Shown here piece after piece: positions 1,916-49,978 of a stretch of 64,000 nt of DNA. Where the stretch lies: NCBI RefSeq assembly GCF_058153355.1, contig NZ_CM177019.1, one strand, 5' to 3'. Positions within the stretch are counted from its first letter, which is position 1; the number at the start of each line of letters is the position of its first letter. A program made the translations under genes and the position numbers. The notes beneath the pieces were generated by a model. The model was given only the letters and a program-made list of their open reading frames with translations. It was not told where the DNA came from and ran no database searches.

Positions 1916-1945
1916 GGTCTTTGTGGCCGGATGAACCCATCCGGC

Positions 1946-2260: not shown

Positions 2261-2357
2261 GAGATAATCGGTCGCTTAATTTCGCTATAGCGCATACGAA
2301 ATCCCGCTAATTCCCTGTCATTGCGCCCTATCGTCAGGCAGACGATAGGGCATCGGG

Positions 2358-3860: not shown

Positions 3861-4078
3861 GAAACCATCCTTCATTTCAGCGCGTGTATAAAACGCGCCC
3901 ACTGAACTGCACCGCCCAACATTGAGCGGGCAGCGTAAAAACCAATACAGAATTGATACCTGGATGATATCAAATATCCAGTCTTAAATTGTGGCCTTTA
4001 GCGGAAAAATGAAAACATATGCTACAGAATGGCGCTCATCACGCCATTCTTCGCGGTTAATTCAGTAATTTTTCAGAA

Positions 4079-5056: not shown

Positions 5057-5228
5057 AGTTAAATCTCCATTTTTTGACAAGGGCACGAAGTCTACTCGCA
5101 ACGCGGCGGCGAGACAAATTTTACGCAGGTATCAATCAACGGTGGGCGGTGACTAAAAAAAGCACGATCTGATGGTTTAGTAATTAAATTAATCATCTTC
5201 AGTGATAATTTAGCCCTCTTGCGCACTA

Positions 5229-5277
5229 AAAAAATCGATCTCGTCAAATTTCAGACTTATCCATCAGACTATACTGT
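5229..5277 (+). promoter_or_regulatory. frdABCD promoter region with FNR-type half sites (ATCGAT-N4-GTCAAA) and candidate -10 TATACT
   Basis: aaaATCGATctcgTCAAAtt at 5229-5248 resembles the TTGAT-N4-ATCAA FNR consensus; TATACT at 5271-5276; about 100 bp upstream of frdA GTG start. Confidence 0.5.
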
Positions 5278-5380
5278 TGTACCTATAAAGGAGCAGTGGA
5301 ATAGCGTTCGCAGACCGTAACTTTCAGGCACTTACCCTGAAGTACGGGGCTGTGGGATAAAAACAATCTGGAGGAATGTC

Positions 5381-7181
5381 GTGCAAACCTTTCAAGCCGA
5401 TCTTGCCATTGTAGGCGCCGGTGGCGCGGGATTACGTGCTGCAATTGCTGCCGCGCAGGCAAATCCAAATGCAAAAATCGCACTAATCTCAAAAGTATAC
5501 CCTATGCGTAGCCATACCGTAGCTGCAGAAGGGGGCTCCGCCGCTGTCGCGCAGGATCATGACAGCTTCGAATATCACTTTCACGATACAGTAGCGGGTG
5601 GCGACTGGTTGTGTGAGCAGGATGTCGTGGATTATTTCGTCCACCACTGCCCAACCGAAATGACCCAACTGGAACTGTGGGGATGCCCATGGAGCCGTCG
5701 CCCGGATGGTAGCGTCAACGTACGTCGCTTCGGCGGCATGAAAATCGAGCGTACCTGGTTCGCCGCCGATAAAACCGGCTTCCATATGCTGCACACGCTG
5801 TTCCAGACCTCTCTGCAATTCCCGCAGATCCAGCGTTTTGACGAGCACTTCGTACTGGATATTCTGGTTGATGATGGTCATGTTCGCGGCCTGGTGGCAA
5901 TGAACATGATGGAAGGCACGCTGGTGCAGATCCGTGCTAACGCGGTCGTTATGGCTACCGGCGGTGCAGGTCGCGTTTATCGTTACAACACCAACGGCGG
6001 CATCGTTACCGGTGACGGTATGGGTATGGCGCTAAGCCACGGCGTTCCGCTGCGTGACATGGAATTCGTTCAGTATCACCCAACCGGTCTGCCAGGTTCC
6101 GGTATCCTGATGACCGAAGGCTGCCGCGGTGAAGGCGGTATTCTGGTCAACAAAAATGGCTACCGTTATCTGCAAGATTACGGCATGGGCCCGGAAACTC
6201 CGCTGGGCGAGCCGAAAAACAAATATATGGAACTGGGTCCACGCGACAAAGTTTCTCAGGCCTTCTGGCACGAATGGCGTAAAGGCAACACCATCTCCAC
6301 GCCGCGTGGCGATGTAGTTTATCTCGACCTGCGTCACCTCGGCGAGAAAAAACTGCATGAACGTCTGCCGTTCATCTGCGAACTGGCGAAAGCGTACGTT
6401 GGCGTCGATCCGGTTAAAGAACCGATTCCAGTACGTCCGACCGCACACTACACCATGGGCGGTATCGAAACCGATCAGAACTGTGAAACCCGCATTAAAG
6501 GTCTGTTCGCCGTCGGTGAATGTTCCTCTGTTGGTCTGCACGGCGCAAACCGTCTGGGCTCCAACTCCCTGGCGGAACTGGTGGTCTTCGGTCGTCTGGC
6601 CGGTGAACAAGCGACAGAACGTGCAGCAACTGCCGGTAATGGCAACGAAGCGGCAATTGAAGCGCAGGCTGCTGGCGTTGAACAACGTCTGAAAGATCTG
6701 GTTAACCAGGATGGCGGCGAAAACTGGGCGAAGATCCGCGACGAAATGGGCCTGGCTATGGAAGAAGGTTGCGGTATCTACCGTACGCCGGAACTGATGC
6801 AGAAAACCATCGACAAGCTGGCTGAGCTACAGGAACGCTTCAAGCGCGTGCGCATCACCGACACCTCCAGTGTGTTCAACACCGACCTGCTCTACACCAT
6901 TGAACTGGGCCACGGTCTGAACGTTGCTGAATGTATGGCGCACTCTGCAATGGCACGTAAAGAGTCTCGCGGCGCGCACCAGCGTCTGGACGAAGGTTGC
7001 ACCGAGCGTGACGACGTCAACTTCCTCAAACACACCCTCGCCTTCCGCGATGCTGATGGCACTACTCGCCTGGAGTACAGCGACGTGAAGATTACTACGC
7101 TGCCGCCAGCTAAACGCGTTTACGGTGGCGAAGCGGATGCAGCCGATAAGGCGGAAGCAGCCAATAAGAAGGAGAAGGCGA

Positions 7182-7189
<8 letters not shown>
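5381..7189 (+). CDS. frdA: Fumarate reductase flavoprotein subunit FrdA (GTG start)
   Basis: 602-aa [29 protein letters not shown]… with FAD-binding GxGxxG and the covalent-FAD motif [10 protein letters not shown]. Confidence 0.97.
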
Positions 7190-8322
<1,133 letters not shown>

Positions 8323-32681: not shown

Positions 32682-34199
32682 ATGTCTGAACGAGAAACAC
32701 GGGGAGCCAATGAGGCTATTGATTTTAACGATGAACTGAGAAATCGCCGCGAAAAACTGGCGGCACTGCGTCAGCAAGGTGTGGCGTTTCCTAATGATTT
32801 TCGCCGCGACCATACCTCTGACCAGTTGCACGAAGAGTTTGATGCGAAGGATAACCAGGAACTGGAATCCTTAAACATTGAAGTCTCGGTTGCTGGCCGA
32901 ATGATGACCCGTCGTATCATGGGGAAAGCCTCCTTTGTAACGTTGCAGGATGTCGGTGGCCGTATTCAACTGTACGTTGCACGAGATAGCCTGCCAGAAG
33001 GTGTTTATAACGATCAGTTTAAAAAATGGGACCTCGGCGACATTATCGGTGCCCGCGGTACGCTGTTTAAGACGCAAACTGGTGAGCTTTCCATTCACTG
33101 TACTGAGTTACGCCTGCTGACTAAGGCACTGCGTCCATTGCCGGATAAATTCCATGGCTTACAGGATCAGGAAGTCCGTTATCGTCAACGTTATCTGGAC
33201 CTCATCGCTAACGATAAATCCCGTCAAACGTTTGTTGTCCGTTCAAAAATTCTGGCCGCTATCCGTCAGTTCATGGTCGCTCGCGGTTTTATGGAAGTAG
33301 AAACCCCAATGATGCAGGTAATTCCAGGTGGGGCATCTGCTCGCCCGTTTATTACCCATCATAATGCTCTGGATTTGGATATGTACCTGCGTATTGCGCC
33401 GGAGCTATATCTGAAACGTCTGGTTGTAGGTGGTTTTGAACGGGTATTCGAAATCAACCGTAACTTCCGTAATGAAGGTATTTCTGTTCGTCATAATCCT
33501 GAGTTCACGATGATGGAACTCTACATGGCGTATGCGGATTACCACGATTTGATTGAACTGACGGAATCACTGTTCCGCACTCTGGCACAAGAGGTACTGG
33601 GTACCACTAAAGTCACTTATGGCGAGCATGTGTTTGATTTCGGCAAACCGTTTGAAAAACTCACCATGCGCGAAGCAATCAAAAAATATCGTCCAGAAAC
33701 CGATATGGCGGACCTGGATAATTTTGATGCTGCTAAAGCATTAGCTGAATCTATCGGAATTACGGTAGAGAAAAGCTGGGGGCTGGGACGCATTGTCACG
33801 GAGATCTTTGATGAAGTGGCAGAAGCACATCTGATTCAGCCAACCTTTATCACGGAATATCCGGCAGAAGTGTCACCGCTGGCGCGCCGTAATGATGTTA
33901 ACCCGGAAATCACCGACCGTTTTGAATTCTTCATCGGTGGTCGTGAAATCGGTAATGGTTTTAGCGAATTAAACGACGCAGAAGATCAGGCTGAACGTTT
34001 CCAGGAACAGGTTAACGCTAAAGCTGCAGGTGACGACGAAGCCATGTTCTATGACGAAGATTACGTGACTGCGCTGGAATATGGTCTGCCGCCAACCGCG
34101 GGTCTGGGTATTGGTATCGACCGAATGATTATGCTGTTTACTAACAGTCATACTATTCGCGACGTTATTCTCTTCCCGGCGATGCGTCCACAGAAATAA
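32682..34199 (+). CDS. lysU: Lysyl-tRNA synthetase, heat-inducible isoform LysU (505 aa)
   Basis: [33 protein letters not shown]…; class II aaRS motifs; assigned to lysU rather than lysS by synteny with cadA/dtpC. Confidence 0.95.
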
Positions 34200-34209
34200 A
34201 TTTCATTTT

Positions 34210-34244
34210 AACGAACGAAGCAGTCAGACGACTGCTTCGTTCGT
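34210..34244. terminator. Perfect 16-bp-stem hairpin between convergent lysU and ghoT; probable bidirectional terminator
   Basis: AACGAACGAAGCAGTC-AGA-CGACTGCTTCGTTCGT inverted repeat. Confidence 0.6.
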
Positions 34245-34317
34245 CGTTCCACAAATCCAGTTTCGAGGAGAGACGCTTCGTTTCAAGATAACCAGCGGGT
34301 CCACTCAACTACAGCTC

Positions 34318-34423
34318 CTAAAAGAGAGAAAAAAGTAATGCCACAGGCAGGCTCATTGGCCAGGTTATTCCGACCAGGAATGCACTAAGTAAACGAATAT
34401 GTGTTTTCTCATGTGAGATAAAC
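34318..34423 (-). pseudogene. ghoT: ghoT 3' fragment (codons ~24-57 plus stop) separated from its 5' part by the IS66-family insertion
   Basis: Minus-strand translation …SHEKTHIRLLSAFLVGITWPMSLPVALLFSLF* continues in frame from the fragment at 36893-36968 once the IS and one copy of the 8-bp duplication are removed. Confidence 0.85.
34416..34423. repeat. Target-site duplication AGATAAAC (left copy) of the IS66-family insertion
   Basis: Identical 8-mer directly flanks both ends of the element (34416-34423 and 36893-36900). Confidence 0.9.
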
Positions 34424-34498
34424 GTAAGCGTCTTATCAGGACCGTCTGGCAAATTCCCGATGCTTTGGACAAAGTATCCACCACTAAATTAATAGTGG

Positions 34499-34927
34499 GT
34501 GATAAAAATGTCAGATATACAAAAAAATGCCTCTCCGGGAAGGCCTAAAGGGTGCCTGAATTATCCTCCTGAATTCAAACAACGACTCATAGAAGCATCA
34601 TTCCAGCCAGGTGTTTCAATTTCCAGACTGGCCCTGGACAATGGTATTAATGCCAATCTGTTGTTCAAATGGCGTCAGAAATGGCGGCAGGGGAAGATAA
34701 AATTGCCATCATCAGAATCAGGCAGAGAATCTCAGTTAATTCCTGTCACTATTGATGCCCAACTCCCAACTGCTCCGGCTAATGAGCCACTGACCGCAAG
34801 ACCGTCAGTAACACCGGAAATACACAGCATCTCCTGTGAGATTACGTTCAGAAACGGCACCCTTCGGTTGAACGGGGCAGTGAATGAAAATCTGCTGTCC
34901 TTGCTTATACAGGAGCTGAGACGGTGA
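34499..34927 (+). CDS. tnpA: IS66-family accessory protein TnpA (OrfA)
   Basis: 142-aa ORF MIKMSDIQKNASPGRPKGCLNYPPEFKQRLIEASFQPGVSISRLALDNGINANLLFKWRQKWRQG… (HTH-like); the true start may be the Met at 34508. Confidence 0.85.
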   Translation: MIKMSDIQKNASPGRPKGCLNYPPEFKQRLIEASFQPGVSISRLALDNGINANLLFKWRQKWRQGKIKLPSSESGRESQLIPVTIDAQLPTAPANEPLTARPSVTPEIHSISCEITFRNGTLRLNGAVNENLLSLLIQELRR

Positions 34928-35271
34928 TATCTCTCCCTGCAGGTTCGCGTATCTGGCTGGTTGCAGGTATCACCGATATGCGAAATGGCTTTAACGGCCT
35001 GGCCTCAAAAGTTCAGAACGTCCTGAAGGATGACCCGTTCTCCGGGCATCTGTTCATCTTCCGCGGACGCCGGGGTGACCAGATAAAAGTGTTGTGGGCT
35101 GACAGTGACGGACTGTGCCTCTTCACCAGACGCCTGGAGCGGGGCCGCTTCGTCTGGCCGGTCACCCGTGACGGCAAGGTGCACCTTACTCCGGCCCAGT
35201 TATCCATGCTTCTTGAGGGCATCGACTGGAAACACCCGAAACGAACGGAACGCGCTGGCATCCGCATATAA
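34924..35271 (+). CDS. tnpB: IS66-family TnpB (OrfB)
   Basis: 115-aa ORF MISLPAGSRIWLVAGITDMRNGFNGLASKVQNVLKDDPFSGHLFIFRGRRGDQIKVLWADSDGLCLF…; GTG start overlapping tnpA stop by 4 bp. Confidence 0.85.
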   Translation: MISLPAGSRIWLVAGITDMRNGFNGLASKVQNVLKDDPFSGHLFIFRGRRGDQIKVLWADSDGLCLFTRRLERGRFVWPVTRDGKVHLTPAQLSMLLEGIDWKHPKRTERAGIRI

Positions 35272-35290
35272 CCCGTTGTAAAGTGAGGAT

Positions 35291-36862
35291 ATGGACACCT
35301 CACTTGCTCATGAGAATGCCCGCCTGCGGGCACTGTTGCAGACGCAACAGGACACCATCCGCCAGATGGCGAAATACAACCGCCTGCTCTCACAGCGGGT
35401 GGCGGCTTATGCTTCCGAAATCAACCGGCTGAAGGCGCTGGTTGCAAAACTGCAGCGCATGCAGTTCGGTAAAAGCTCAGAAAAACTTCGTGCAAAAACC
35501 GAACGGCAGATACAGGAAGCACAGGAGCGAATCAGCGCTCTTCAGGAAGAAATGGCGGAAACGCTGGGTGAGCAATATGACCCGGTACTGCCATCTCCCC
35601 TGCGCCAGTCTTCAGCCCGTAAACCGTTACCTGCCTCACTTCCCCGTGAAACCCGGGTCATCCGTCCGGAAGAGGAATGCTGCCCGGCCTGTGGTGGCGA
35701 ACTCAGTTCTCTGGGATGTGATGTGTCAGAGCAACTGGAGCTTATCAGCAGCGCCTTTAAGGTTATCGAAACACAACGTCCGAAACTGGCCTGTTGCCGG
35801 TGCGACCATATCGTGCAGGCTCCGGTGCCTTCAAAACCCATTGCACGCAGTTATGCCGGAGCGGGGCTTCTGGCCCATGTTGTCGCTGGAAAATATGCAG
35901 ACCATCTGCCGTTATACCGCCAGTCAGAAATATACCGTCGTCAGGGCGTGGAGCTGAGCCGTGCCACACTGGGGCGCTGGACAGGTGCTGTTGCTGAACT
36001 GCTGGAACCGCTGTATGACATCCTGCGCCAGTATGTGCTGATGCCCGGTAAAGTCCATGCCGATGATATCCCCGTTCCGGTCCAGGAGCCGGGCAGCGGT
36101 AAAACAAGGACTGCCCGGCTGTGGGTCTACGTTCGTGATGACCGTAACGCCGGTTCGGAAATGCCTCCGGCGGTCTGGTTCGCGTACAGCCCGGACCGGA
36201 AAGGTATCCATCCACAGAATCATCTGGCCGGTTACAGCGGAGTGCTTCAGGCCGATGCTTACGGTGGTTACCGGGCGTTGTACGAATCCGGCAGAATAAC
36301 GGAAGCCGCATGTATGGCTCATGCCCGGAGAAAAATCCACGATGTGCATGCAAGAGTGCCCACCGACATCACCACGGAAGCCCTGCAGCGTATCGGTGAA
36401 CTGTATGCCATCGAGGCAGAGGTCCGGGGCTGTTCAGCAGAACAGCGTCTGGCGGCAAGAAAAGCCAGAGCCGCGCCACTGATGCAGTCACTGTATGACT
36501 GGATACAGCAACAGATGAAAACACTGTCGCGTCACTCGGACACGGCAAAAGCGTTCGCATACCTGCTGAAACAGTGGGATGCACTGAACGTGTACTGCAG
36601 TAATGGCTGGGTGGAAATCGACAACAACATCGCAGAGAACGCCTTACGGGGAGTGGCCGTAGGCCGGAAAAACTGGCTCTTCGCGGGTTCTGACAGCGGT
36701 GGTGAACATGCTGCGGTGTTGTACTCGCTGATCGGCACATGCCGTCTGAACAATGTGGAGCCAGAAAAGTGGCTGCGTTACGTCATTGAACATATCCAGG
36801 ACTGGCCGGCAAACCGGGTACGCGATCTGTTGCCCTGGAAAGTTGATCTGAGCTCTCAGTAA
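35291..36862 (+). CDS. tnpC: IS66-family DDE transposase TnpC
   Basis: 523-aa ORF with N-terminal coiled-coil/leucine-zipper region, Cys pairs CPACGG…CCRCDH and a DDE-type core. Confidence 0.88.
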
Positions 36863-36892
36863 ATATCAATACGGTTCTGGCGAGCCGCTTAC

Positions 36893-36900
36893 AGATAAAC
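36893..36900. repeat. Target-site duplication AGATAAAC (right copy) of the IS66-family insertion
   Basis: Identical to 34416-34423. Confidence 0.9.
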
Positions 36901-36968
36901 CAGATAATGACAAAGTATATGTTCACACCAATCACATAAAAAATTAATATTTTAGAGAATAGTGCCAT
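36893..36968 (-). pseudogene. ghoT: ghoT 5' fragment (start codon plus about 25 codons) truncated by the IS66-family insertion
   Basis: Minus-strand ATG at 36966-36968; MALFSKILIFYVIGVNIYFVIIWFI then reads straight into the IS right inverted repeat. Confidence 0.85.
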
Positions 36969-36995
36969 TTTTTATGTTCTTCTTATCCTTCCTGA

Positions 36996-37292
36996 CTACT
37001 TGTAAAACTGACGGAAATAGTCATCAACTGTCATAATGTTGAGGTCAAAATCAATATCCGGTAAGTCTAAGCATTTGAGCCTGATTAAATCTTCGATTTC
37101 ACTTGCGGCTAACGATGTCGTTATTGCGAAGGAATTTTCATTCAATTGTCGTGGTATCCCATATTCATCAGCCACGATAGAGGAGAAATTCATATCATAC
37201 ATCAATGATCTTAACCTTAAGAACACTGAGGAATAAGATGATGGATAATCAAAAGAAACAACATAAGTATTGAACTTGTTTTTACCTTCCAT
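36996..37292 (-). CDS. ghoS: Type V antitoxin GhoS (YjdK), sequence-specific endoribonuclease, 98 aa
   Basis: MEGKNKFNTYVVSFDYPSSYSSVFLRLRSLMYDMNFSSIVADEYGIPRQLNENSF…; immediately upstream of ghoT on the same strand. Confidence 0.88.
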   Translation of the reverse strand: MEGKNKFNTYVVSFDYPSSYSSVFLRLRSLMYDMNFSSIVADEYGIPRQLNENSFAITTSLAASEIEDLIRLKCLDLPDIDFDLNIMTVDDYFRQFYK

Positions 37293-37518
37293 AATATGAC
37301 TCCTATCAATATTAAACGCTCTGGGGACGCACAACTTATTAACCCCGATCGATGATTCTCATATAGGAGATATTCTTTTTTTTGCTCAGTAAAGGGGATG
37401 ACTTGGGACAAGAAAACGCTCTCTCTGACCATTCTTTGTGCATCCCCCTACCCTTCAGATGCTCTCCTGCATCACACCGCGGAGAGCATGAAAAATATCG
37501 TGACTCTGTACTCTCCCA

Positions 37519-37791
37519 TCAACTGCGAATATCATCATACTCCCGTGTTTTATCAAATTCGTGTTTCGCAAATGGACATAATGGGATAATTTTTCGTTTT
37601 TCCCGACGCATTTTTTCCACGACTTTCGCAACCAGCTGTTTACCAATCCCTTGTCCTTTCAGGCTTTCATCGACATCGGTATGTTCGATAATCGCTAAAT
37701 TCTCTCCGGTCGGCACAAAGACAATTTCAGCGATTTGCTTGCCCTGTTCGTCATTAATGTAAAATTTATTGTGGCCTTCGTGTATTTCCAT
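37519..37791 (-). CDS. yjdJ: Putative GNAT-type acetyltransferase YjdJ (90 aa)
   Basis: [57 protein letters not shown]…. Confidence 0.85.
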
Positions 37792-37802
37792 TTTACCCTC
37801 GC

Positions 37803-38033
37803 TTATTTATGACGGTATTTCAGCGCGCCGCTCGGGCACGTATCAATCACTTTAACCACAGTGGCAACGTCGACTTCATCCGGCATGATCCACGGCTTTC
37901 GTTTGAGATTAAATAACTTGCCGTTGCCACGTACGCAATTGCCAGAATGCTGACATATCGCAGTGTTGAAATAGACATCGATCTTTTCGCCGGTATAACA
38001 GCGATAACCCCCGTCCAGTAGCGCCTGATCCAT
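37803..38033 (-). CDS. yjdI: Small cysteine-rich (putative Fe-S) protein YjdI (76 aa)
   Basis: [59 protein letters not shown]… with four conserved Cys. Confidence 0.85.
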
Positions 38034-38213
38034 GACCTTCCCTCTCTCATCAGTATGGTTTTCACTATAAGCATAGCCCTGGAATCTTCATACAGCACTG
38101 GCAGTTTCCGTTGCCAGAGTCTCTTCCCCTATATAGCCAATCATTCTTACTCCCTTTGAATTACCCGCCTCATCAGAGATAATGCTTAAGAAATTTGTCA
38201 CACAAGGAAGCTG

Positions 38214-39845
38214 ATGAGACATTCATTGCCCTACCGCATATTACGCAAACGTCCGATGAAATTGAGTACCACTGTGATCTTAATGGTCAGCGCGGTACTG
38301 TTCTCGGTGCTATTGGTGGTGCATCTGATTTACTTCTCGCAAATCAGTGATATGACGCGAGACGGGCTAGCCAACAAGGCACTGGCAGTGGCGCGTACTC
38401 TCGCCGACTCGCCGGAAATCCGTCAGGGCTTGCAGAAAAAACCGCAGGAGAGCGGCATCCAGGCCATCGCGGAAGCCGTGCGCAAACGCAACGATCTGCT
38501 GTTTATTGTCGTTACCGATATGCAAAGTCTTCGCTACTCGCATCCTGAAGCCCAGCGTATTGGTCAGCCATTTAAAGGTGATGACATCCTTAAAGCGCTG
38601 AATGGCGAAGAAAATGTCGCTATCAATCGCGGTTTTCTGGCGCAGGCTTTACGCGTATTTACCCCCATCTACGATGAAAATCATAAACAAATTGGCGTGG
38701 TGGCGATCGGCCTTGAGTTAAGTCGCGTGACCCAACAGATCAATGACAGTCGCTGGAGCATCATCTGGTCGGTATTATTTGGCATGCTGGTCGGGCTGAT
38801 TGGCACCTGCATTCTGGTTAAGGTACTGAAAAAAATCCTTTTCGGCCTGGAACCCTACGAAATCTCCACGCTGTTTGAGCAACGCCAGGCCATGTTGCAG
38901 TCGATCAAAGAAGGCGTCGTTGCCGTGGACGATCGCGGCGAGGTCACGCTGATCAACGATGCCGCACAAGAATTGCTGAATTACCGTAAGTCGCAGGACG
39001 ATGAGAAACTGTCGACGCTAAGCCACTCGTGGTCACAGGTGGTAGATGTCTCGGAAGTGTTACGCGACGGTACCCCGCGGCGCGACGAAGAGATTACGAT
39101 TAAAGACCGGCTATTACTGATCAACACCGTTCCGGTGCGCAGTAATGGCGTTATCATCGGTGCCATTTCAACCTTCAGGGACAAAACTGAAGTACGTAAA
39201 CTGATGCAGCGACTCGATGGTCTGGTCAACTATGCTGACGCACTTCGTGAACGATCCCACGAATTTATGAATAAATTGCATGTGATTCTCGGATTATTGC
39301 ATCTGAAGAGTTATAAGCAGTTGGAAGATTACATTCTCAAAACAGCCAATAACTATCAGGAAGAGATTGGCTCTCTGCTGGGTAAGATCAAATCTCCGGT
39401 TATCGCTGGTTTTTTAATCAGCAAGATTAACCGCGCGACCGATTTAGGCCATACGCTGATTTTAAACAGTGAAAGCCAGCTGCCAGACAGCGGCAGTGAG
39501 GACCAGGTCGCGACGCTGATTACCACGTTGGGAAATCTGATAGAAAACGCGCTGGAAGCATTAGGGCCGGAACCCGGTGGCGAAATTAGCGTAACATTGC
39601 ACTACCGTCACGGCTGGCTGCACTGTGAAGTTAACGATGATGGACCGGGGATCGCACCCGACAAAATCGATCACATTTTTGACAAAGGTGTCTCGACAAA
39701 AGGAAGCGAGCGAGGCGTCGGTTTAGCACTTGTCAAACAACAGGTAGAAAATCTCGGCGGCAACATCGCCGTGGAATCGGAACCCGGGATTTTCACACAA
39801 TTTTTTGTCCAGATACCCTGGGACGGGGAGAGGTCGAACAGATGA
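38214..39845 (+). CDS. dcuS: C4-dicarboxylate sensor histidine kinase DcuS
   Basis: 543-aa ORF; two TM segments, periplasmic PAS-like domain, H-box and ATPase motifs (…GLGLALVKQ…). Confidence 0.96.
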   Translation: MRHSLPYRILRKRPMKLSTTVILMVSAVLFSVLLVVHLIYFSQISDMTRDGLANKALAVARTLADSPEIRQGLQKKPQESGIQAIAEAVRKRNDLLFIVVTDMQSLRYSHPEAQRIGQPFKGDDILKALNGEENVAINRGFLAQALRVFTPIYDENHKQIGVVAIGLELSRVTQQINDSRWSIIWSVLFGMLVGLIGTCILVKVLKKILFGLEPYEISTLFEQRQAMLQSIKEGVVAVDDRGEVTLINDAAQELLNYRKSQDDEKLSTLSHSWSQVVDVSEVLRDGTPRRDEEITIKDRLLLINTVPVRSNGVIIGAISTFRDKTEVRKLMQRLDGLVNYADALRERSHEFMNKLHVILGLLHLKSYKQLEDYILKTANNYQEEIGSLLGKIKSPVIAGFLISKINRATDLGHTLILNSESQLPDSGSEDQVATLITTLGNLIENALEALGPEPGGEISVTLHYRHGWLHCEVNDDGPGIAPDKIDHIFDKGVSTKGSERGVGLALVKQQVENLGGNIAVESEPGIFTQFFVQIPWDGERSNR

Positions 39846-40561
39846 TCAATGTATTAATTATCGATGACGACGCAATGGTCGCGGAGCTGAATCGCCGATA
39901 CGTGGCACAAATCCCAGGCTTTCAATGCTGTGGAACAGCCTCGACGCTGGAGAAAGCCAAAGAGATTATCTTCAATAGCGATACGCCTATCGACCTGATA
40001 TTGCTCGATATCTATATGCAAAAAGAGAACGGGCTCGATTTACTGCCTGTCCTGCATAACGCGCGTTGCAAAAGTGATGTGATTGTCATCTCCTCCGCAG
40101 CCGATGCGGCAACCATTAAAGATTCGCTGCATTACGGTGTCGTGGATTACCTGATCAAACCCTTCCAGGCTTCCCGCTTTGAAGAGGCGCTCACCGGCTG
40201 GCGGCAAAAGAAAATGGCGCTGGAAAAACATCAGTATTATGACCAGGCCGAGCTTGATCAGCTAATCCACGGCAGCAGCTCCAACGAGCAGGATCCTCGT
40301 CGCTTGCCAAAAGGCTTAACGCCGCAGACGTTACGCACGCTGTGCCAGTGGATTGACGCGCATCAGGACTATGAGTTTTCAACCGACGAGCTGGCTAACG
40401 AGGTTAACATCTCGCGTGTTTCCTGCCGTAAATACCTCATTTGGCTGGTCAACTGCCACATCTTGTTCACCAGTATCCATTATGGCGTCACGGGGCGTCC
40501 AGTTTACCGTTACCGTATTCAGGCAGAACACTACTCACTACTGAAACAATATTGCCAATAA
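39842..40561 (+). CDS. dcuR: C4-dicarboxylate response regulator DcuR
   Basis: 239-aa ORF MINVLIIDDDAMVAELNRRYVAQIPGF… receiver domain plus HTH; start overlaps dcuS stop by 4 bp. Confidence 0.96.
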   Translation: MINVLIIDDDAMVAELNRRYVAQIPGFQCCGTASTLEKAKEIIFNSDTPIDLILLDIYMQKENGLDLLPVLHNARCKSDVIVISSAADAATIKDSLHYGVVDYLIKPFQASRFEEALTGWRQKKMALEKHQYYDQAELDQLIHGSSSNEQDPRRLPKGLTPQTLRTLCQWIDAHQDYEFSTDELANEVNISRVSCRKYLIWLVNCHILFTSIHYGVTGRPVYRYRIQAEHYSLLKQYCQ

Positions 40562-41131
40562 CGGATCGCTGGTTATCTGTAAGTAATAATTATTACCGTA
40601 ATGCAAAATACCCCTGGCACAAGTTACATCGTTCATCAGTAAAACTTGTGCCAGATCAAATATAATTATCCCTCCATCATCGCTAAAAATTAATATCTCT
40701 TCAGGTGAACGGTGTTTTTAATTTCAAAACGCTAACAAAAGTTAATTAACTATTATGTCACCCACATTATGTATATTTTTACCCACAAATGGGTAGATCA
40801 GATTAATCTATAAACCTAATGATATCTGCCCTGAGAACAAAAAACAGACCGATAAATATCAATAAGATAACAGCAAACAAAACATTAACATCTGCGTAGT
40901 ACAAACTATAAACCCATCGCCAGAGAGTATTTCTCTCTGAAAAAACCGCTTATCACAGTGCATAAATTTGCCGCTGCTTTAATCAGCCAATATTCACTGT
41001 GAGGTATTTACTCAAGCCGGTAACGACCAAACGGATATTTAGTCAAGCTCTGAAAACAGTTCATACAAAACAGAACGTGACTGTGATCTATTCAGCAAAA
41101 ATTTAAATAGGATTATCGCGAGGGTTTACAC

Positions 41132-42472
41132 ATGTTATTTACTATCCAACTTATCATAATACTGATATGTCTGTTTTATGGTGCCAGAAAGGGCGGTATC
41201 GCGCTGGGTTTATTAGGCGGTATCGGCCTGGTCATTCTGGTCTTCGTCTTCCACCTTCAGCCAGGTAAACCACCGGTTGATGTCATGCTGGTTATCATTG
41301 CGGTGGTGGCGGCCTCGGCGACCTTGCAAGCTTCGGGCGGTCTTGATGTCATGCTGCAAATTGCCGAGAAGCTGCTGCGCCGCAATCCGAAATATGTCTC
41401 CATTGTCGCACCGTTTGTAACCTGCACGCTGACCATTCTTTGCGGTACGGGCCACGTGGTTTACACCATTCTGCCGATCATCTACGACGTTGCTATTAAG
41501 AACAACATCCGTCCGGAACGTCCGATGGCGGCAAGTTCTATCGGTGCACAGATGGGGATTATCGCAAGCCCAGTGTCGGTTGCGGTCGTATCTCTGGTTG
41601 CGATGCTGGGTAATGTCACCTTTGATGGTCGCCATCTTGAGTTCCTCGACCTGCTGGCAATCACCATTCCATCGACGTTAATCGGTATCCTGGCGATCGG
41701 TATCTTCAGTTGGTTCCGCGGTAAAGATCTGGATAAAGATGAAGAGTTCCAGAAATTCATCTCCGTACCGGAAAACCGTGAGTATGTTTACGGTGATACC
41801 GCGACGCTGCTGGATAAAAAACTGCCGAAAAGCAACTGGCTGGCAATGTGGATCTTCCTCGGGGCAATCGCTGTAGTTGCACTTCTTGGTGCTGATTCGG
41901 ACCTGCGTCCATCCTTCGGTGGCAAACCGCTGTCGATGGTACTGGTTATTCAGATGTTTATGCTGCTAACCGGGGCGCTGATTATTATCCTGACCAAAAC
42001 CAATCCTGCGTCTATCTCAAAAAACGAAGTCTTCCGTTCCGGTATGATCGCCATCGTGGCGGTGTACGGTATCGCATGGATGGCGGAAACCATGTTCGGT
42101 GCGCATATGTCTGAAATTCAGGGCGTACTGGGTGAAATGGTGAAAGAGTATCCGTGGGCCTATGCCATTGTTCTGCTGCTGGTTTCCAAGTTTGTAAACT
42201 CTCAGGCCGCGGCGCTAGCGGCGATTGTTCCGGTCGCGCTGGCGATCGGCGTTGACCCGGCATACATCGTGGCTTCAGCACCGGCTTGCTATGGTTATTA
42301 CATCCTGCCGACTTATCCGAGCGACCTGGCAGCGATTCAGTTTGACCGTTCCGGCACCACCCACATCGGTCGCTTCGTCATCAACCACAGCTTTATTCTG
42401 CCGGGGTTGATTGGTGTGAGCGTATCGTGCGTCTTCGGCTGGATCTTCGCTGCGATGTACGGGTTCTTATAA
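41132..42472 (+). CDS. dcuB: Anaerobic C4-dicarboxylate (fumarate/succinate) antiporter DcuB
   Basis: 446-aa [36 protein letters not shown]…; about 570 bp of AT-rich regulatory DNA upstream. Confidence 0.97.
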
Positions 42473-42549
42473 ATGCACTTTGCGTGCCGCCCGTGACTGC
42501 GCGGCACGCCATTTTCGAATAACAAATACAGAGTTACAGGCTGGAAGCT

Positions 42550-44196
42550 ATGTCAAACAAACCCTTTATCTACCAGGCACCTTTCCCGATGGGGAAAGAC
42601 AATACCGAATACTATCTACTCACGTCCGATTACGTTAGCGTTGCCGACTTCGACGGCGAAACCATCCTGAAAGTGGAACCAGAAGCCCTGACCTTGCTGG
42701 CGCAGCAAGCCTTCCACGACGCTTCTTTCATGCTCCGCCCGGCACACCAGAAACAGGTCGCGGCTATTCTTCAAGATCCAGAAGCCAGCGAAAACGACAA
42801 GTACGTGGCGCTGCAATTCTTAAGAAACTCAGAAATCGCCGCCAAAGGCGTGCTGCCGACCTGCCAGGACACCGGCACCGCGATCATCGTCGGTAAAAAA
42901 GGTCAGCGCGTGTGGACCGGTGGCGGCGATGAAGAAGCGCTGTCGAAAGGTGTCTATAACACCTATATCGAAGATAACCTACGTTACTCACAAAACGCGC
43001 CGCTGGACATGTACAAAGAGGTCAACACCGGCACGAACCTGCCTGCGCAAATCGACCTGTACGCGGTAGATGGCGACGAATACAAATTCCTCTGCGTCGC
43101 CAAAGGCGGTGGCTCTGCCAATAAAACGTATCTCTACCAGGAAACCAAAGCTTTGCTGACTCCCGGCAAACTGAAAAACTTCCTCGTCGAGAAAATGCGT
43201 ACACTCGGTACTGCAGCCTGCCCGCCGTACCATATCGCGTTTGTGATTGGCGGTACGTCTGCGGAAACCAACCTGAAAACCGTCAAGTTAGCAAGCGCTC
43301 ACTATTACGATGAACTGCCGACCGAAGGGAACGAACATGGTCAGGCGTTCCGCGATGTCCAGCTGGAACAGGAACTGCTGGAAGAGGCCCAGAAACTCGG
43401 CCTTGGCGCGCAGTTTGGCGGTAAATACTTCGCGCACGACATCCGCGTGATCCGTCTGCCACGTCACGGCGCATCCTGCCCGGTAGGTATGGGCGTCTCC
43501 TGCTCCGCTGACCGTAACATTAAAGCGAAAATCAACCGCGAAGGTATCTGGATCGAAAAACTGGAACACAATCCAGGCCAGTACATTCCACAAGAACTGC
43601 GTCAGGCCGGTGAAGGCGAAGCGGTGAAAGTCGACCTTAACCGCCCGATGAAAGAGATCCTCGCCCAGCTTTCGCAATACCCGGTATCCACCCGCTTGTC
43701 GCTCACCGGCACTATTATCGTGGGTCGCGATATTGCACATGCCAAGCTGAAAGAGCTGATTGACGCCGGTAAAGAGCTGCCGCAGTACATCAAAGATCAC
43801 CCGATCTACTACGCGGGTCCGGCGAAAACGCCTGCCGGTTATCCATCAGGTTCACTTGGCCCAACCACCGCAGGTCGTATGGACTCCTACGTGGATCTGC
43901 TGCAATCCCACGGCGGCAGCATGATCATGCTGGCGAAAGGTAACCGCAGTCAGCAGGTTACCGACGCGTGTCATAAACACGGCGGCTTCTACCTCGGTAG
44001 TATCGGCGGCCCGGCGGCGGTACTGGCGCAGCAGAGCATCAAGCATCTGGAATGCGTCGCTTATCCGGAGCTGGGTATGGAAGCTATCTGGAAAATCGAA
44101 GTAGAAGATTTCCCGGCGTTTATCCTGGTCGATGACAAAGGCAACGACTTCTTCCAGCAAATCGTCAACAAACAGTGCGCGAACTGCACTAAGTAA
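42550..44196 (+). CDS. fumB: Class I (Fe-S) fumarate hydratase FumB
   Basis: 548-aa [58 protein letters not shown]…. Confidence 0.97.
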
Positions 44197-44318
44197 CCTC
44201 TTCGGCCCAGCGCCTGGCAGCATGCTGCCAGGTGATCCCCCTGGGCCACCTCTTTTGCGATTGTAATTTCACGCTTGCTGGTGAATAGTCAGTATTTTCC
44301 CTGACTTGCGAACTCACC

Positions 44319-44969
44319 ATGACCCGCACACTCAAGCCGTTAATTCTTAACACCGGCGCACTGGCGCTAACGTTAATCCTGATTTATACCGGCATTTCGG
44401 CCAATGACAAACTCACCTGGCTGATGGAAGTGACACCGGTGATTATTGTCGTGCCGCTACTGCTTGCCACCGCCAGACGTTACCCGTTAACGCCGCTGCT
44501 CTATACGCTCATTTTCTTTCATGCCATCATCCTGATGGTCGGCGGGCAATACACCTACGCGAAAGTCCCCGTTGGTTTTGAGGTGCAGGAATGGCTGGGG
44601 TTGAGCCGTAATCCGTATGACAAGCTGGGGCATTTTTTCCAGGGGCTGGTGCCTGCACTGGTGGCGCGAGAAATTCTCGTTCGCGGGATGTACGTGCACG
44701 GACGTAAAATGGTGGCGTTTCTGGTCTGCTGCGTGGCGCTGGCGATAAGCGCGATGTATGAATTAATCGAGTGGTGGGCAGCGCTGGCAATGGGTCAGGG
44801 AGCGGATGATTTTCTCGGCACCCAGGGCGACCAGTGGGACACACAATCCGATATGTTCTACGCGCTACTTGGTGCATTAACTACGGTGATATTCCTTGCT
44901 CGCTTTCATTGCCGCCAGCTACGGCGCTATGGCTTAATCACCAGAGCGCCGGAAGCGATTACCTCTTAA
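44319..44969 (+). CDS. yjdF: Inner membrane protein YjdF (DUF2238 family)
   Basis: 216-aa hydrophobic ORF MTRTLKPLILNTGALALTLILIYTG…; the 3' end abuts melA, so the C-terminus may be altered by the melB-removing event. Confidence 0.85.
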   Translation: MTRTLKPLILNTGALALTLILIYTGISANDKLTWLMEVTPVIIVVPLLLATARRYPLTPLLYTLIFFHAIILMVGGQYTYAKVPVGFEVQEWLGLSRNPYDKLGHFFQGLVPALVAREILVRGMYVHGRKMVAFLVCCVALAISAMYELIEWWAALAMGQGADDFLGTQGDQWDTQSDMFYALLGALTTVIFLARFHCRQLRRYGLITRAPEAITS

Positions 44970-46321
44970 CGGTGTAACCAGCCTGGCAGCCAGTCGCCGT
45001 GGGCGGCAATCAGGTCGTCAACAAGAGCATATATTTCGTCAATGCCCAGCACGGCGGCAGTATGCGGGTCCATCATCGCGGCGTGGTAAACACGGTCGCG
45101 ATTTTCTGTGAGAATGGCTTCCGTCAGCAGTGTCTGTACGTTGATATTGGTTTGCATCAGGGCGGCCAGATGCGAAGGTAGCGTACCGACTTTGGTCGGC
45201 TGAATGCCATTAGCATCAACCAGACAGGCCACTTCCACACAACATCCTTGTGGCAGGTTATCAATCAAACCATCGTTACGGACGTTGCCATAAATCACAC
45301 TCGGCTCGCCAGTCCAGATAGCGTTCATGATTGTGCTGGCATATTCCCGTGACGGTTTAATATCAATCCGGGAGGCGTTCTTATACTCCTCCAGCTCTTT
45401 ATGCCAGTTCGCCAGCTGCTCGACGCAGCGTTTCGGGTACTCATCCAGCGGTACTTTATAACGCTCAATCAAATCCTCACGACCTGGCTTAATAAACCAC
45501 GGTGTGTACTCAGCAAAATGTTCTGACGATTCCGTGACGAAGTAGCCCAGCTTTTTGAACATTTCGTAACGCACAATATTCTGGCAGCGAGTATTACCAT
45601 GAATATTTGGCTTCGGTGCCTGCCCTGCTTCATAAGCCGCCAGCAGTTCCGGGTAGAGATTCACGTAACTGCCGTCGGCGGTTTTGCGCTCCAGTTCCAG
45701 GTAAAACGCCATATGGTTGATACCCGCACAACGGTAACGCAGCGTAGCCGGGTCGATATTGAGGTCACGCGCCAGCTCTTCCGCCGTTCCCTGCACCGAA
45801 TGACACAGCCCTACCTGTTTGATATGCGGATAACGGGCATACATCGCCCAGGTATTCATCGCCATTGGGTTAACATAGTTGAGCATGGTGGCATCGGGGC
45901 AGACTTCCGTCATGTCCTCGCAAATTTGCCACAGGTGAGGAATGGTACGTAGCGCGCGCATAATACCGCCCGGCCCCAGCGTATCGGCAATGGTTTGTTC
46001 CAGACCGTGGCGCTTACAGACCTCGAAATCAGTCACCGTGCAAGGTTCATAACCGCCAATCTGAAATGCCACCACGACAAAATCGGCATCCTGTAAGGCT
46101 TCTTTCTGTTGGGTGTGGCAGGTGATTTTGCCGCTGGCCCCTGCTGAATCCATCAGCTTGCGCACCACAATATGCGACTCTTCCAGGCGGGTGGGATCAA
46201 TGTCCATCAGGGCAATATGCGCCGTTTTCAGCGCCTCGCGATGGAACACATCACCAAGAATATTTTTAACGAAAATCGTCGAACCAGCGCCGATAAATGT
46301 AATTTTGGGTGCAGACATCAT
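44966..46321 (-). CDS. melA: Alpha-galactosidase MelA (NAD/Mn-dependent GH4 family)
   Basis: 451-aa ORF MMSAPKITFIGAGSTIFVKNILGDVFHREAL… with Rossmann-type GxGS motif. Confidence 0.97.
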   Translation of the reverse strand: MMSAPKITFIGAGSTIFVKNILGDVFHREALKTAHIALMDIDPTRLEESHIVVRKLMDSAGASGKITCHTQQKEALQDADFVVVAFQIGGYEPCTVTDFEVCKRHGLEQTIADTLGPGGIMRALRTIPHLWQICEDMTEVCPDATMLNYVNPMAMNTWAMYARYPHIKQVGLCHSVQGTAEELARDLNIDPATLRYRCAGINHMAFYLELERKTADGSYVNLYPELLAAYEAGQAPKPNIHGNTRCQNIVRYEMFKKLGYFVTESSEHFAEYTPWFIKPGREDLIERYKVPLDEYPKRCVEQLANWHKELEEYKNASRIDIKPSREYASTIMNAIWTGEPSVIYGNVRNDGLIDNLPQGCCVEVACLVDANGIQPTKVGTLPSHLAALMQTNINVQTLLTEAILTENRDRVYHAAMMDPHTAAVLGIDEIYALVDDLIAAHGDWLPGWLHR

Positions 46322-46603
46322 GCAGATCTCCTGGCTTGCTTGAATAACTTCATCATGGCAGGCGAATCTGCAGAAAACCTCCGGCTTCCAGGTTGAGCAT
46401 TCCCATAAACTCAGATCCTGCGTGAAGTGTCAGTAAATCTGAGTTTATGGGAATAAATTACCTGAAAAGCAGAGTTTTCGGCCTCATGGTACTCGGATGA
46501 TCCCTTCGCCCCTCTGGCAAGAGGGCGAAAACCGTGCTCCCACTCGCAGTCATCCTCCCTCACTCCTGCCATAATTCTGATATTCCAGGAAAGAGAGTCA
46601 TCC

Positions 46604-47512
46604 ATGAATACAGATACGTTTATGTGCAGCAGCGACGAAAAACAGACCCGCAGCCCGCTGTCGCTGTATTCGGAATACCAGCGGATGGAGATTGAGTTTC
46701 GCGCACCGCATATCATGCCCACCAGCCACTGGCATGGTCAGGTCGAAGTGAATGTGCCTTTCGATGGCGATGTGGAATACCTGATCAACAATGAAAAAGT
46801 GAGTATCAATCAGGGACATATCACGCTGTTCTGGGCCTGTACACCGCACCAACTAACAGATACCGGAACCTGTCAGAGCATGGCGATTTTTAATCTGCCG
46901 ATGCATCTGTTTCTCTCCTGGCCGCTGGATAAAGACCTGATTAACCACGTCACTCACGGCATGGTGATCAAATCACTGGCGACACAGCAACTTAGCCCGT
47001 TTGAAGTGCGCCGCTGGCAGCAGGAATTGAACAGTCCGAACGAGCAAATTCGCCAGCTCGCCATTGATGAAATTGGCCTGATGCTCAAGCGATTTAGCCT
47101 CTCTGGCTGGGAACCGATTCTGGTCAATAAAACCTCGCGCACACACAAAAACAGCGTCTCGCGCCATGCGCAATTTTATGTCAGCCAGATGCTGGGCTTT
47201 ATTGCCGAAAACTATGATCAGGCGCTGACCATCAACGATGTGGCTGAGCACGTCAAACTTAACGCCAACTATGCAATGGGGATATTCCAGCGGGTCATGC
47301 AATTGACGATGAAACAGTACATTACTGCGATGCGCATCAACCACGTTCGTGCGTTACTGAGCGATACCGATAAAAGTATTCTCGATATTGCCCTGACGGC
47401 AGGCTTTCGTTCGAGTAGCCGTTTTTACAGCACGTTCGGCAAATATGTCGGCATGTCACCGCAACAATACCGCAAACTTAGCCAACAGCGCCGCCAGACG
47501 TTTCCCGGCTAA
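46604..47512 (+). CDS. melR: AraC-family melibiose operon activator MelR
   Basis: 302-aa ORF; C-terminal AraC-type HTH (…ILDIALTAGFRSSSRFYSTFGKYVGMSPQQYR…). Confidence 0.96.
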   Translation: MNTDTFMCSSDEKQTRSPLSLYSEYQRMEIEFRAPHIMPTSHWHGQVEVNVPFDGDVEYLINNEKVSINQGHITLFWACTPHQLTDTGTCQSMAIFNLPMHLFLSWPLDKDLINHVTHGMVIKSLATQQLSPFEVRRWQQELNSPNEQIRQLAIDEIGLMLKRFSLSGWEPILVNKTSRTHKNSVSRHAQFYVSQMLGFIAENYDQALTINDVAEHVKLNANYAMGIFQRVMQLTMKQYITAMRINHVRALLSDTDKSILDIALTAGFRSSSRFYSTFGKYVGMSPQQYRKLSQQRRQTFPG

Positions 47513-47710
47513 AGACGATATCAGTATCAGCCAAAAAAATAGTTTAGCCGTCGATAATAAGCAGTGAAAATAAATCAAAATAATCACATAACATATTGTT
47601 TATAAAAATGAATATTTAAAAAATGTTTGTTTTTCATGCGCTTTACAGCCCGAAAAGGCCGGAAGATACTTGCCCGCAACGAAGATTCCTTCATAACCGG
47701 GTAAGCAATG

Positions 47711-49978
47711 ATGAAAGTATTAATTGTTGAAAGCGAGTTTCTCCATCAGGACACCTGGGTCGGTAACGCCGTTGAGCGTCTGGCAGATGCTTTAAGCCAG
47801 CAAAATGTTACCGTGATTAAATCCACCTCCTTTGATGATGGCTTTGCCATTCTCTCTTCAAACGAAGCCATTGACTGCCTGATGTTCAGCTATCAAATGG
47901 AACATCCGGACGAACATCAAAACGTCAGACAATTGATCGGTAAGCTTCATGAGCGCCAACAAAACGTGCCGGTCTTCCTGTTGGGCGATCGGGAAAAAGC
48001 CCTCGCCGCAATAGACCGAGATCTGCTGGAGCTTGTCGATGAATTCGCCTGGATTCTGGAAGATACCGCCGACTTTATCGCCGGACGCGCCGTTGCCGCA
48101 ATGACCCGCTACCGCCAGCAGCTGTTGCCGCCACTGTTCAGCGCGCTGATGAAATATAGCGACATCCATGAATATTCCTGGGCAGCGCCAGGCCACCAGG
48201 GCGGCGTTGGCTTTACCAAAACACCCGCCGGACGTTTCTACCATGACTACTATGGTGAAAATCTGTTCCGCACCGACATGGGCATCGAACGGACTTCCCT
48301 CGGTTCTTTGCTTGACCATACTGGCGCATTTGGCGAAAGCGAAAAATATGCCGCACGCGTATTTGGTGCCGATCGCTCCTGGTCGGTAGTCGTCGGTACT
48401 TCCGGCTCTAACCGTACCATCATGCAGGCTTGCATGACCGATAACGATGTAGTGGTCGTTGACCGTAACTGCCATAAATCCATCGAACAAGGCTTGATGC
48501 TGACAGGCGCGAAACCGGTCTACATGGTGCCAAGCCGCAACCGCTACGGCATTATCGGGCCAATTTATCCGCAGGAAATGCAACCTGAAACCTTGCAGAA
48601 GAAAATCAGTGAAAGCCCGCTGACCAAAGACAAAGCCGGGCAAAAACCGTCTTACTGCGTGGTAACCAACTGCACCTATGACGGCGTGTGTTATAACGCT
48701 AAAGAAGCGCAGGATCTGCTGGAAAAAACTTCCGATCGTCTGCACTTTGACGAAGCCTGGTACGGCTATGCACGTTTCAACCCGATCTATGCCGATCACT
48801 ATGCCATGCGCGGTGAACCTGGCGATCACAACGGTCCTACCGTTTTCGCCACCCACTCAACCCACAAACTGCTGAATGCGCTGTCACAGGCCTCTTACAT
48901 TCATGTGCGTGAAGGTCGTGGGGCGATTAACTTCTCCCGCTTCAACCAGGCATACATGATGCATGCCACCACCTCCCCGCTGTATGCCATCTGTGCATCT
49001 AACGACGTGGCGGTGTCGATGATGGACGGCAACAGCGGCCTGTCACTGACCCAGGAAGTGATCGACGAAGCGGTTGATTTCCGTCAAGCGATGGCACGGC
49101 TGTATAAAGAGTTCACCCATGACGGTAGCTGGTTCTTCAAACCGTGGAACAAAGAAGTGGTCACCGATCCACAAACCGGCAAAACCTACGACTTTGCTGA
49201 CGCGCCAACCAAACTGCTGACCACCGTTCAGGACTGCTGGGTAATGCATCCGGGCGAAAGCTGGCACGGCTTCAAAGATATTCCGGATAACTGGAGTATG
49301 CTCGACCCAATTAAAGTCAGCATTCTCGCACCAGGAATGGGTGAAGATGGTGAACTGGAAGAAACCGGTGTTCCGGCGGCGCTGGTCACTGCCTGGCTTG
49401 GTCGCCACGGCATTGTGCCTACCCGCACCACTGACTTCCAAATTATGTTCCTGTTCTCTATGGGCGTAACCCGTGGGAAATGGGGAACTCTGGTTAACAC
49501 CCTTTGCTCCTTCAAACGCCACTACGACGCCAACACACCGCTGGCGCAGGTGATGCCGGAACTTGTTGAACAATATCCTGACACTTACGCGAATATGGGG
49601 ATTCACGATCTGGGTGACACCATGTTTGCCTGGCTAAAAGAAAATAACCCTGGCGCACGGTTGAACGAAGCCTATTCCGGCCTGCCGGTGGCGGAAATCA
49701 CCCCGCGTGAAGCGTACAACGCAATTGTCGATAACAATGTCGAACTGGTATCCATTGAAAATCTGCCTGGACGCATCGCGGCAAACTCAGTTATCCCGTA
49801 TCCGCCAGGAATCCCGATGCTACTGTCTGGTGAAAACTTCGGCGATAAAAACAGTCCACAGGTAAGTTATTTACGCTCCCTGCAATCCTGGGACCATCAT
49901 TTCCCTGGATTTGAACACGAAACTGAAGGGACTGAAATTATTGACGGTATTTACCACGTCATGTGTGTGAAAGCGTAA
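47711..49978 (+). CDS. adiA: Biodegradative (acid-inducible) arginine decarboxylase AdiA
   Basis: 755-aa ORF MKVLIVESEFLHQDTWVGNAVERLADAL…; PLP motif THSTHKLL; an extra in-frame Met one codon upstream (47708) is possible. Confidence 0.97.
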   Translation: MKVLIVESEFLHQDTWVGNAVERLADALSQQNVTVIKSTSFDDGFAILSSNEAIDCLMFSYQMEHPDEHQNVRQLIGKLHERQQNVPVFLLGDREKALAAIDRDLLELVDEFAWILEDTADFIAGRAVAAMTRYRQQLLPPLFSALMKYSDIHEYSWAAPGHQGGVGFTKTPAGRFYHDYYGENLFRTDMGIERTSLGSLLDHTGAFGESEKYAARVFGADRSWSVVVGTSGSNRTIMQACMTDNDVVVVDRNCHKSIEQGLMLTGAKPVYMVPSRNRYGIIGPIYPQEMQPETLQKKISESPLTKDKAGQKPSYCVVTNCTYDGVCYNAKEAQDLLEKTSDRLHFDEAWYGYARFNPIYADHYAMRGEPGDHNGPTVFATHSTHKLLNALSQASYIHVREGRGAINFSRFNQAYMMHATTSPLYAICASNDVAVSMMDGNSGLSLTQEVIDEAVDFRQAMARLYKEFTHDGSWFFKPWNKEVVTDPQTGKTYDFADAPTKLLTTVQDCWVMHPGESWHGFKDIPDNWSMLDPIKVSILAPGMGEDGELEETGVPAALVTAWLGRHGIVPTRTTDFQIMFLFSMGVTRGKWGTLVNTLCSFKRHYDANTPLAQVMPELVEQYPDTYANMGIHDLGDTMFAWLKENNPGARLNEAYSGLPVAEITPREAYNAIVDNNVELVSIENLPGRIAANSVIPYPPGIPMLLSGENFGDKNSPQVSYLRSLQSWDHHFPGFEHETEGTEIIDGIYHVMCVKA

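Follow-up and report, generated by a model that had tools for sequence, protein, structure and literature searches.

What becomes of a toxin-antitoxin (TA) pair when a mobile element lands in only one of its two genes? The question is raised by the ghoST locus on a stretch of 64,000 nucleotides (nt), hereafter the window (NCBI RefSeq assembly GCF_058153355.1, contig NZ_CM177019.1), in which the antitoxin gene ghoS is followed by the toxin gene ghoT in two pieces with an insertion sequence (IS) between them. GhoT/GhoS is the type V TA system of E. coli K-12, reportedly described by Wang et al. in 2012, and to our knowledge GhoST is the only type V system that has been well studied. Very probably, the chromosomal ghoST operon of an E. 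coli strain received an intact IS66-family element in a single transposition, which inactivated the toxin and left the antitoxin in place.

Elements of the IS66 family are described in ISfinder as generating an 8-bp target-site duplication (TSD) and as having terminal inverted repeats that start with GTAAGCG. A string search of positions 34000-37400 found the octamer AGATAAAC exactly twice, once at each edge of the inserted element (Table 1). A preliminary description of this DNA, made from its letters alone, had proposed that removal of the IS and one copy of the repeat restores a 57-codon frame, and that this frame is ghoT; both proposals hold, and every coordinate and sequence given in that description proved correct. 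When the two halves are joined in silico (36968..36901 to 34423..34318), a 174-nt open reading frame (ORF) is obtained, and its 57-amino-acid (aa) product is MALFSKILIFYVIGVNIYFVIIWFISHEKTHIRLLSAFLVGITWPMSLPVALLFSLF. Aligned with the annotated ghoT of K-12 MG1655 (b4559), the reconstructed gene is identical at 172/174 nt and 56/57 aa, the sole amino acid change being S18Y. The product matches Pfam PF10753 (Toxin_GhoT_OrtT) at 5.9e-25 over model positions 1-55 of 55, and this full-length match is reached only once the IS has been excised in silico. NCBIfam, which contains no model for GhoT or GhoS, gave only a hit to SA1362_fam that fell below threshold and was rejected. The empty site, defined as 823 bp of the window with the IS and one AGATAAAC copy removed, aligns end to end and at 98-99.6% identity with DNA annotated as ghoS, ghoT and lysU in 5,252 of 5,426 complete E. 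coli genomes. An alignment of this extent and frequency indicates that the reconstruction did not arise by chance.

GhoT and its paralogue OrtT are inner-membrane peptides of 57 aa with two predicted transmembrane (TM) helices; TM1 (residues 6-26) and TM2 (residues 34-54) were predicted for OrtT, "like GhoT" (PMC4344625). In the window, the reading frame of the toxin is cut between these two predicted helices, directly after codon 25. The gene is broken after nt 76, that is, after 25 complete codons and 1 nt, and codon 26 has become a ghoT/IS hybrid, TGT, encoding Cys. The position originally given for the break, codon 25, is thereby refined, while the loss of toxicity that went with it is to be read as a prediction from sequence. 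A minus-strand frame starting with ATG at 36968 encodes MALFSKILIFYVIGVNIYFVIIWFI before it passes into IS-encoded residues, which confirms the previously noticed fusion of 25 GhoT and 36 IS residues. Hydropathy indicates that this 61-aa fusion keeps one hydrophobic segment, the second lying on the far side of the IS, and the ORF list places TM1 and TM2 2.5 kb apart, each on a separate ORF. No uninterrupted ORF of ~57 aa with both TM segments and F38 is present in the sequence as it stands today. Thus, ghoT here is a pseudogene of the GhoT/OrtT family rather than one of its functional members. The genes of the IS run in the direction opposite to ghoST, and the junction k-mers of the insertion allele are TTCTCATGTGAGATAAACGTAAGCGTC and GCCGCTTACAGATAAACCAGATAATG.

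Table 1 Features of the interrupted ghoST locus, with positions in the window.
Feature	Position	Strand	Composition or basis
ghoT 3' fragment	34318..34423	-	nt 69-174 including the duplicated 8 bp; TM2 with F38, native stop
44-aa ORF, TTG start in IS left end	34318..34452	-	MPDGPDKTLTF (IS end plus TSD copy, 11 residues) followed by GhoT residues 25-57
Left 8-bp TSD copy, AGATAAAC	34416..34423		ghoT nt 69-76, GTTTATCT in gene orientation
IS66-family insertion sequence, 2,469 bp	34424..36892	+	Termini, TSD, three tnp genes
tnpA, IS66-like accessory protein, 139 aa	34508..34927	+	NCBIfam NF047595, 88.8 bits (cut-off 74)
tnpB, IS66 accessory protein, 115 aa	34924..35271	+	NCBIfam NF033819, 127.8 bits (cut-off 50)
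tnpC, IS66-family DDE transposase, 523 aa, intact	35291..36862	+	NCBIfam NF033517, 479.3 bits (cut-off 180)
61-aa chimeric ORF	36783..36968	-	GhoT residues 1-25 followed by 36 residues antisense to IS right end; native ghoT start
Right 8-bp TSD copy, AGATAAAC	36893..36900
ghoT 5' fragment	36893..36968	-	nt 1-76 (codons 1-25 plus 1 nt); TM1
ghoS, type V antitoxin endoribonuclease, 98 aa, intact	36996..37292	-	PF11080 and identity to K-12

The antitoxin gene, which had been called intact, is so by every comparison made. The GhoS protein is 100% identical to K-12 GhoS (b4128), with only 2 synonymous nt differences in the gene, and it matches Pfam PF11080 at 7e-41. It is also identical to PDB 2LLZ (YjdK), the solved GhoS structure, which it matches at 7.8e-62 over residues 1-98. 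As in K-12, the order is bicistronic with the antitoxin first, and a 27-nt spacer separates ghoS from ghoT. The region upstream of ghoS, the spacer and the stretch to lysU are collinear with K-12, with scattered single-nucleotide polymorphisms only. No second ghoT was found within the 64-kb window, and it is for that window that the description of ghoS as an orphan antitoxin stands. Taken together, the toxin is almost certainly dead and the antitoxin gene surviving, as judged from sequence.

The consequences of such an insertion can be followed along the pathway. The stable endoribonuclease GhoS cuts ghoT mRNA where it is rich in A and U; MqsR degrades ghoS mRNA, whereas ghoT is without the GCU target (PMC3997798, PMC3905216). 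GCU counts in the window (3 in ghoS, 0 in the reconstructed ghoT) agree with that literature. The IS would have landed at ghoT nt 69-76, duplicating 8 bp, after which the native ribosome-binding site could direct only the 61-aa chimera, TM1 followed by an IS tail. Since this chimera lacks TM2 and F38, the membrane-damaging toxin is expected to be inactive. Since ghoS and its upstream region are untouched, stable GhoS should still be made, without its cognate toxin. The stress cascade from MqsR through ghoS mRNA to GhoT would thus be cut at its last step and left with no effector.

A less favored account holds that the whole module has been silenced. The operon would have lost its 3' end, read-out from tnpC would run antisense to the ghoT 5' fragment and ghoS, and GhoS output would drop, leaving the strain in effect without GhoST. 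The geometry is compatible with this: tnpC ends on the plus strand at 36862, 134 nt from the ghoS stop and convergent with ghoS, and no plus-strand terminator-like site was reported between the two genes. The ghoS transcript would also enter 2.5 kb of antisense IS RNA, with 39 GCU (MqsR) sites ahead of the operon transcript. However, the ghoS coding sequence and upstream region are intact, and IS transposase genes are usually weakly transcribed. We therefore consider silencing of the entire module unlikely, and retention of an intact antitoxin gene beside a dead toxin gene the better account.

The earlier assignment of the element to the IS66 family is borne out by its structure. The genes tnpA, tnpB and tnpC are consecutive, the last encoding a DDE transposase, and NCBIfam models for all three score above their curated cut-offs. 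The termini (GTAAGCG...CGCTTAC) are imperfect inverted repeats in which the first 7 nt are identical and 17/22 positions match, and they are flanked by the 8-bp TSD. A protein identical to TnpC carries the Pfam domains LZ_Tnp_IS66, zf-IS66, DDE_Tnp_IS66 and DDE_Tnp_IS66_C. The GTG start of tnpB overlaps the stop of tnpA (GGTGA), and the mechanical ORF of tnpA begins at GTG 34499. Two further copies of the element were found. One, in L003 (GCA_047897835.1, contig ABXYKR010000031.1), is full length at 2,469 bp, 99.8% identical, and has the same ends and its own 8-bp TSD, CACCGGAC. The other, on the E. albertii plasmid pESA134_1 (L022, 1501-3969), is 95.9% identical, again with the same ends and its own 8-bp TSD, GAATAAGG. 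Two copies with identical ends and TSDs of their own indicate that the IS boundaries are real.

Both copies have settings of their own. The L003 copy (region 608-7485) lies ~300 bp downstream of a gene for a 1,363-aa SPATE-type serine-protease autotransporter, with more transposase genes beyond, and these surroundings look like a virulence plasmid or island. The copy on pESA134_1 interrupts a Tn3-family transposase gene, both flanks of which are annotated with one protein accession. The exact 139-aa TnpA is called on L003 and L004. Looked up as exact sequences, TnpC and TnpA occur only at this different locus next to a SPATE gene, in GCA_047897835.1 and one Logan contig.

Comparison with the abundant ISCro1-type copies, which are common on both chromosomes and plasmids of E. 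coli, reveals a composite element. From nt 502 to 2469 (window 34925-36892; tnpB, tnpC and the right end), the IS is ~97% identical to these copies, and it shares with them the 8-bp TSD and the GTAAGCG termini. In contrast, the first 501 nt (window 34424-34924; left end and tnpA) gave no significant nucleotide match to the ISCro1-type copy, and no match in the 5,426 complete genomes of E. coli included them. Full-length copies are found on E. albertii plasmids (95.9%) and in one draft assembly (99.8%). The two TnpA proteins differ in length (139 aa here, 216 aa in the ISCro1-type) and are only 37.5% identical. The point of change coincides exactly with the tnpA/tnpB junction. Classification as an ISCro1 isoform was rejected, high identity being confined to nt 502-2469 and not extending across the whole element. 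The IS is therefore a modular mosaic relative of ISCro1. It combines an ISCro1-like tnpB-tnpC with a left end and a tnpA that are unrelated to ISCro1 at the nucleotide level, which is a small point for IS classification.

Neither of the two 300-bp junctions was covered to at least 80% in any of the 5,426 complete E. coli genomes; the left junction was not found in GTDB representative genomes, nor the right junction in JGI metagenome contigs. Among the collections searched, the allele is unique and appears strain-specific. A perfect TSD, three undamaged IS ORFs and the lack of any second sighting of the allele all point to an insertion that is recent and confined to this strain.

Although this allele is seen once, ghoT has been lost elsewhere. 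When ghoT alone was used as the query, 5,273 of the 5,426 complete genomes (97.2%) returned a full-length gene, 10 a partial one and 143 no match; extra ghoT places numbered 14 among 5,283 genomes, some of them merely halves of split genes. The weakest of the 10 partial cases, and the sole one inspected, is strain ES3 (NZ_CM184350.1; L020, 4014-4829), where IS1 cuts ghoT short at about nt 102 and the Prokaryotic Genome Annotation Pipeline annotates the gene as a pseudogene, with ghoS intact. In ES3, a cluster of IS1 and IS200/IS605 fragments lies beyond the truncated gene. Draft data add a nonsense allele on L009 (4121), in which G121T turns Gly41 into a stop. Many draft contigs (L010-L019 among them) end inside ghoT at nt 115-122; the two truncated products that result are indexed in 107 and 146 blocks, NCBI isolate contigs of more than 100 kb included, which suggests further recurrent insertions of repeat elements in some lineages. 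Thus, strains that lose ghoT and keep ghoS are uncommon but recurrent, and such losses are already annotated in RefSeq.

Such recurrence bears on whether the loss of GhoT was favored. Removal of self-inflicted membrane damage, or of a persistence response, could be adaptive in the niche of this lineage, and the insertion would then have been positively selected. Several independent losses (the IS1 truncation, the nonsense codon and the recurrent contig breaks at nt 115-122), together with the complete genomes that gave no match, are what such selection might leave behind. However, full-length ghoT is present in the great majority of complete genomes, so that purifying retention is the rule; the present allele has been seen only once; and ghoT is a small, A+T-rich target. 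In a TA pair, the toxin is expected to decay first because loss of the antitoxin first would be harmful, and selection need not be invoked, even if recurrent independent losses leave some room for it. The insertion is most likely neutral or nearly so, and we regard positive selection as improbable, about on a par with silencing of the module.

The single amino acid difference from K-12 GhoT, S18Y, results from a TCC to TAC change at window position 36916 (ghoT nt 53, codon 18), and an intact S18Y GhoT is found on only 4-5 unrelated contigs in the protein collection. These contigs were considered as a near-isogenic "before" state and rejected, their flanks being 97.4-98.0% identical to the window as compared with 99.0% for the best complete genome. 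Because they are no closer to the window than other E. coli, S18Y is not informative about decay after inactivation, and it looks like a rare recurrent or recombined polymorphism rather than post-inactivation decay.

A further alternative is that the toxin was incompletely neutralized. The 61-aa TM1 chimera, alone or through TM1 and TM2 supplied by the 61-aa and 44-aa ORFs, could be membrane-damaging or dominant-negative, and the locus would then encode an altered small membrane protein under continued GhoS control. The chimera has the native start context and GhoT residues 1-25, with a strongly hydrophobic helix (mean Kyte-Doolittle hydropathy above 2 in 15-aa windows), and the first 76 nt of ghoT are 74% A+T, the type of region that GhoS cleaves (PMC3997798). 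The 44-aa ORF, which the preliminary description did not mention, contains TM2 and F38 in frame. Yet it starts with TTG, its Shine-Dalgarno context is poor and unconvincing, and no minus-strand promoter-like site lies upstream of it, the overall count of such sites being at the level of shuffled sequence. The IS ends were also examined for a promoter pointing outward that could drive the 3' ghoT fragment, and this candidate was rejected, there being no minus-strand promoter-like site. By exact look-up, neither the 61-aa peptide nor the 44-aa product is present in a collection of 15 billion proteins. Finally, F38R, a change in TM2 alone, abolishes GhoT toxicity, and a contact between Phe38 and Ile21 of the two helices is thought to stabilize GhoT (PMC4344625). 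Residual toxin activity is accordingly very unlikely.

More doubtful again is the idea that the insertion created a new small membrane protein regulated by GhoS, in which GhoT TM1 and a positively charged, IS-derived tail of 36 residues are made from the native start and could act as a dominant-negative partner of OrtT or in another membrane role; if true, a dead toxin would have been turned into a new regulator. Least credible of all is an assembly artefact that misplaced an IS copy in ghoT: copies of the IS are repeated in Escherichia, one of them, at a different locus of a different genome, being 99.8% identical, and short-read assemblies often break at ghoT, but a perfect 8-bp duplication of target bases and clean termini matching two other copies are the signature of real transposition.

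Inactivation of the toxin by a single transposition, with the antitoxin retained, is therefore preferred, although several considerations weigh against it. In the 61-aa chimera, one complete hydrophobic helix and the native start are preserved, and some residual membrane activity may remain. The paralogue OrtT, 63% identical to GhoT, is normally also present in E. coli and is not neutralized by GhoS (PMC4344625); it is very probably present in this strain, where it would probably still provide a GhoT-like toxin, and a second ghoT elsewhere in the genome is unlikely. In addition, one allele cannot distinguish a selected insertion from a neutral one.

The appropriate annotation is accordingly that of a ghoT pseudogene split by an IS66-family element beside an intact ghoS, and neither TA surveys nor studies of persistence or stress should list the strain among those with a functional GhoST. 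The locus is a clear-cut natural case of toxin-first decay within a type V TA system. Overproduced GhoS lowers ~20 other transcripts (PMC3997798, PMC3905216), and the strain would provide a natural ghoT-null, ghoS-positive background in which to ask what GhoS does to its other reported mRNA targets. Beyond correct annotation, the importance is small: the event is a routine pseudogenization by an IS; the allele is new, the kind of event is known, and the finding is not surprising.

The wider neighborhood is that of K-12, with the gene order cadCBA, dtpC, lysU, ghoT, ghoS, yjdJ, yjdI, dcuSR, dcuB, fumB. The cadCBA genes are intact, which argues against a background of the Shigella or enteroinvasive E. 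coli type. Farther along, melB is missing, and melA (44966-46321, minus strand) directly adjoins yjdF (44319-44969); in K-12, ~1.67 kb including melB lies between the two. The same arrangement is common to the closest complete genomes and to contig L006, so it characterizes the lineage and has no connection with the IS. Over a 12-kb flank (37300-49300), the closest of the 5,426 complete E. coli genomes are only ~99.0-99.1% identical to the window, and since none exceeds ~99.1%, the lineage of the window is poorly represented among them.

Apart from the ISCro1-type elements, three known systems place this locus in context. The GhoST of K-12 occupies the same locus with the same synteny, an identical GhoS and a ghoT that differs at 2 of 174 nt, but the ghoT of the window is split after nt 76 by a 2,469-bp IS and carries S18Y. 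The pseudogene of ES3 is a close parallel, in that a mobile element destroys ghoT while ghoS is intact and annotated. The two differ in the element (IS1 in ES3, IS66 here), in the position of the break (about nt 102 and nt 76, respectively) and in what is left: ES3 lacks the 3' part of ghoT, with only one matching place and several IS copies following it, whereas in the window the insertion is a simple one that leaves both halves and a TSD. Lastly, OrtT (YdcX), the orphan GhoT-like toxin, whose gene lies outside the window, belongs to the same Pfam family as GhoT and has the same 57 aa and two TM helices. OrtT is a toxin without an antitoxin, and the locus in the window is its mirror image, an antitoxin without a toxin.

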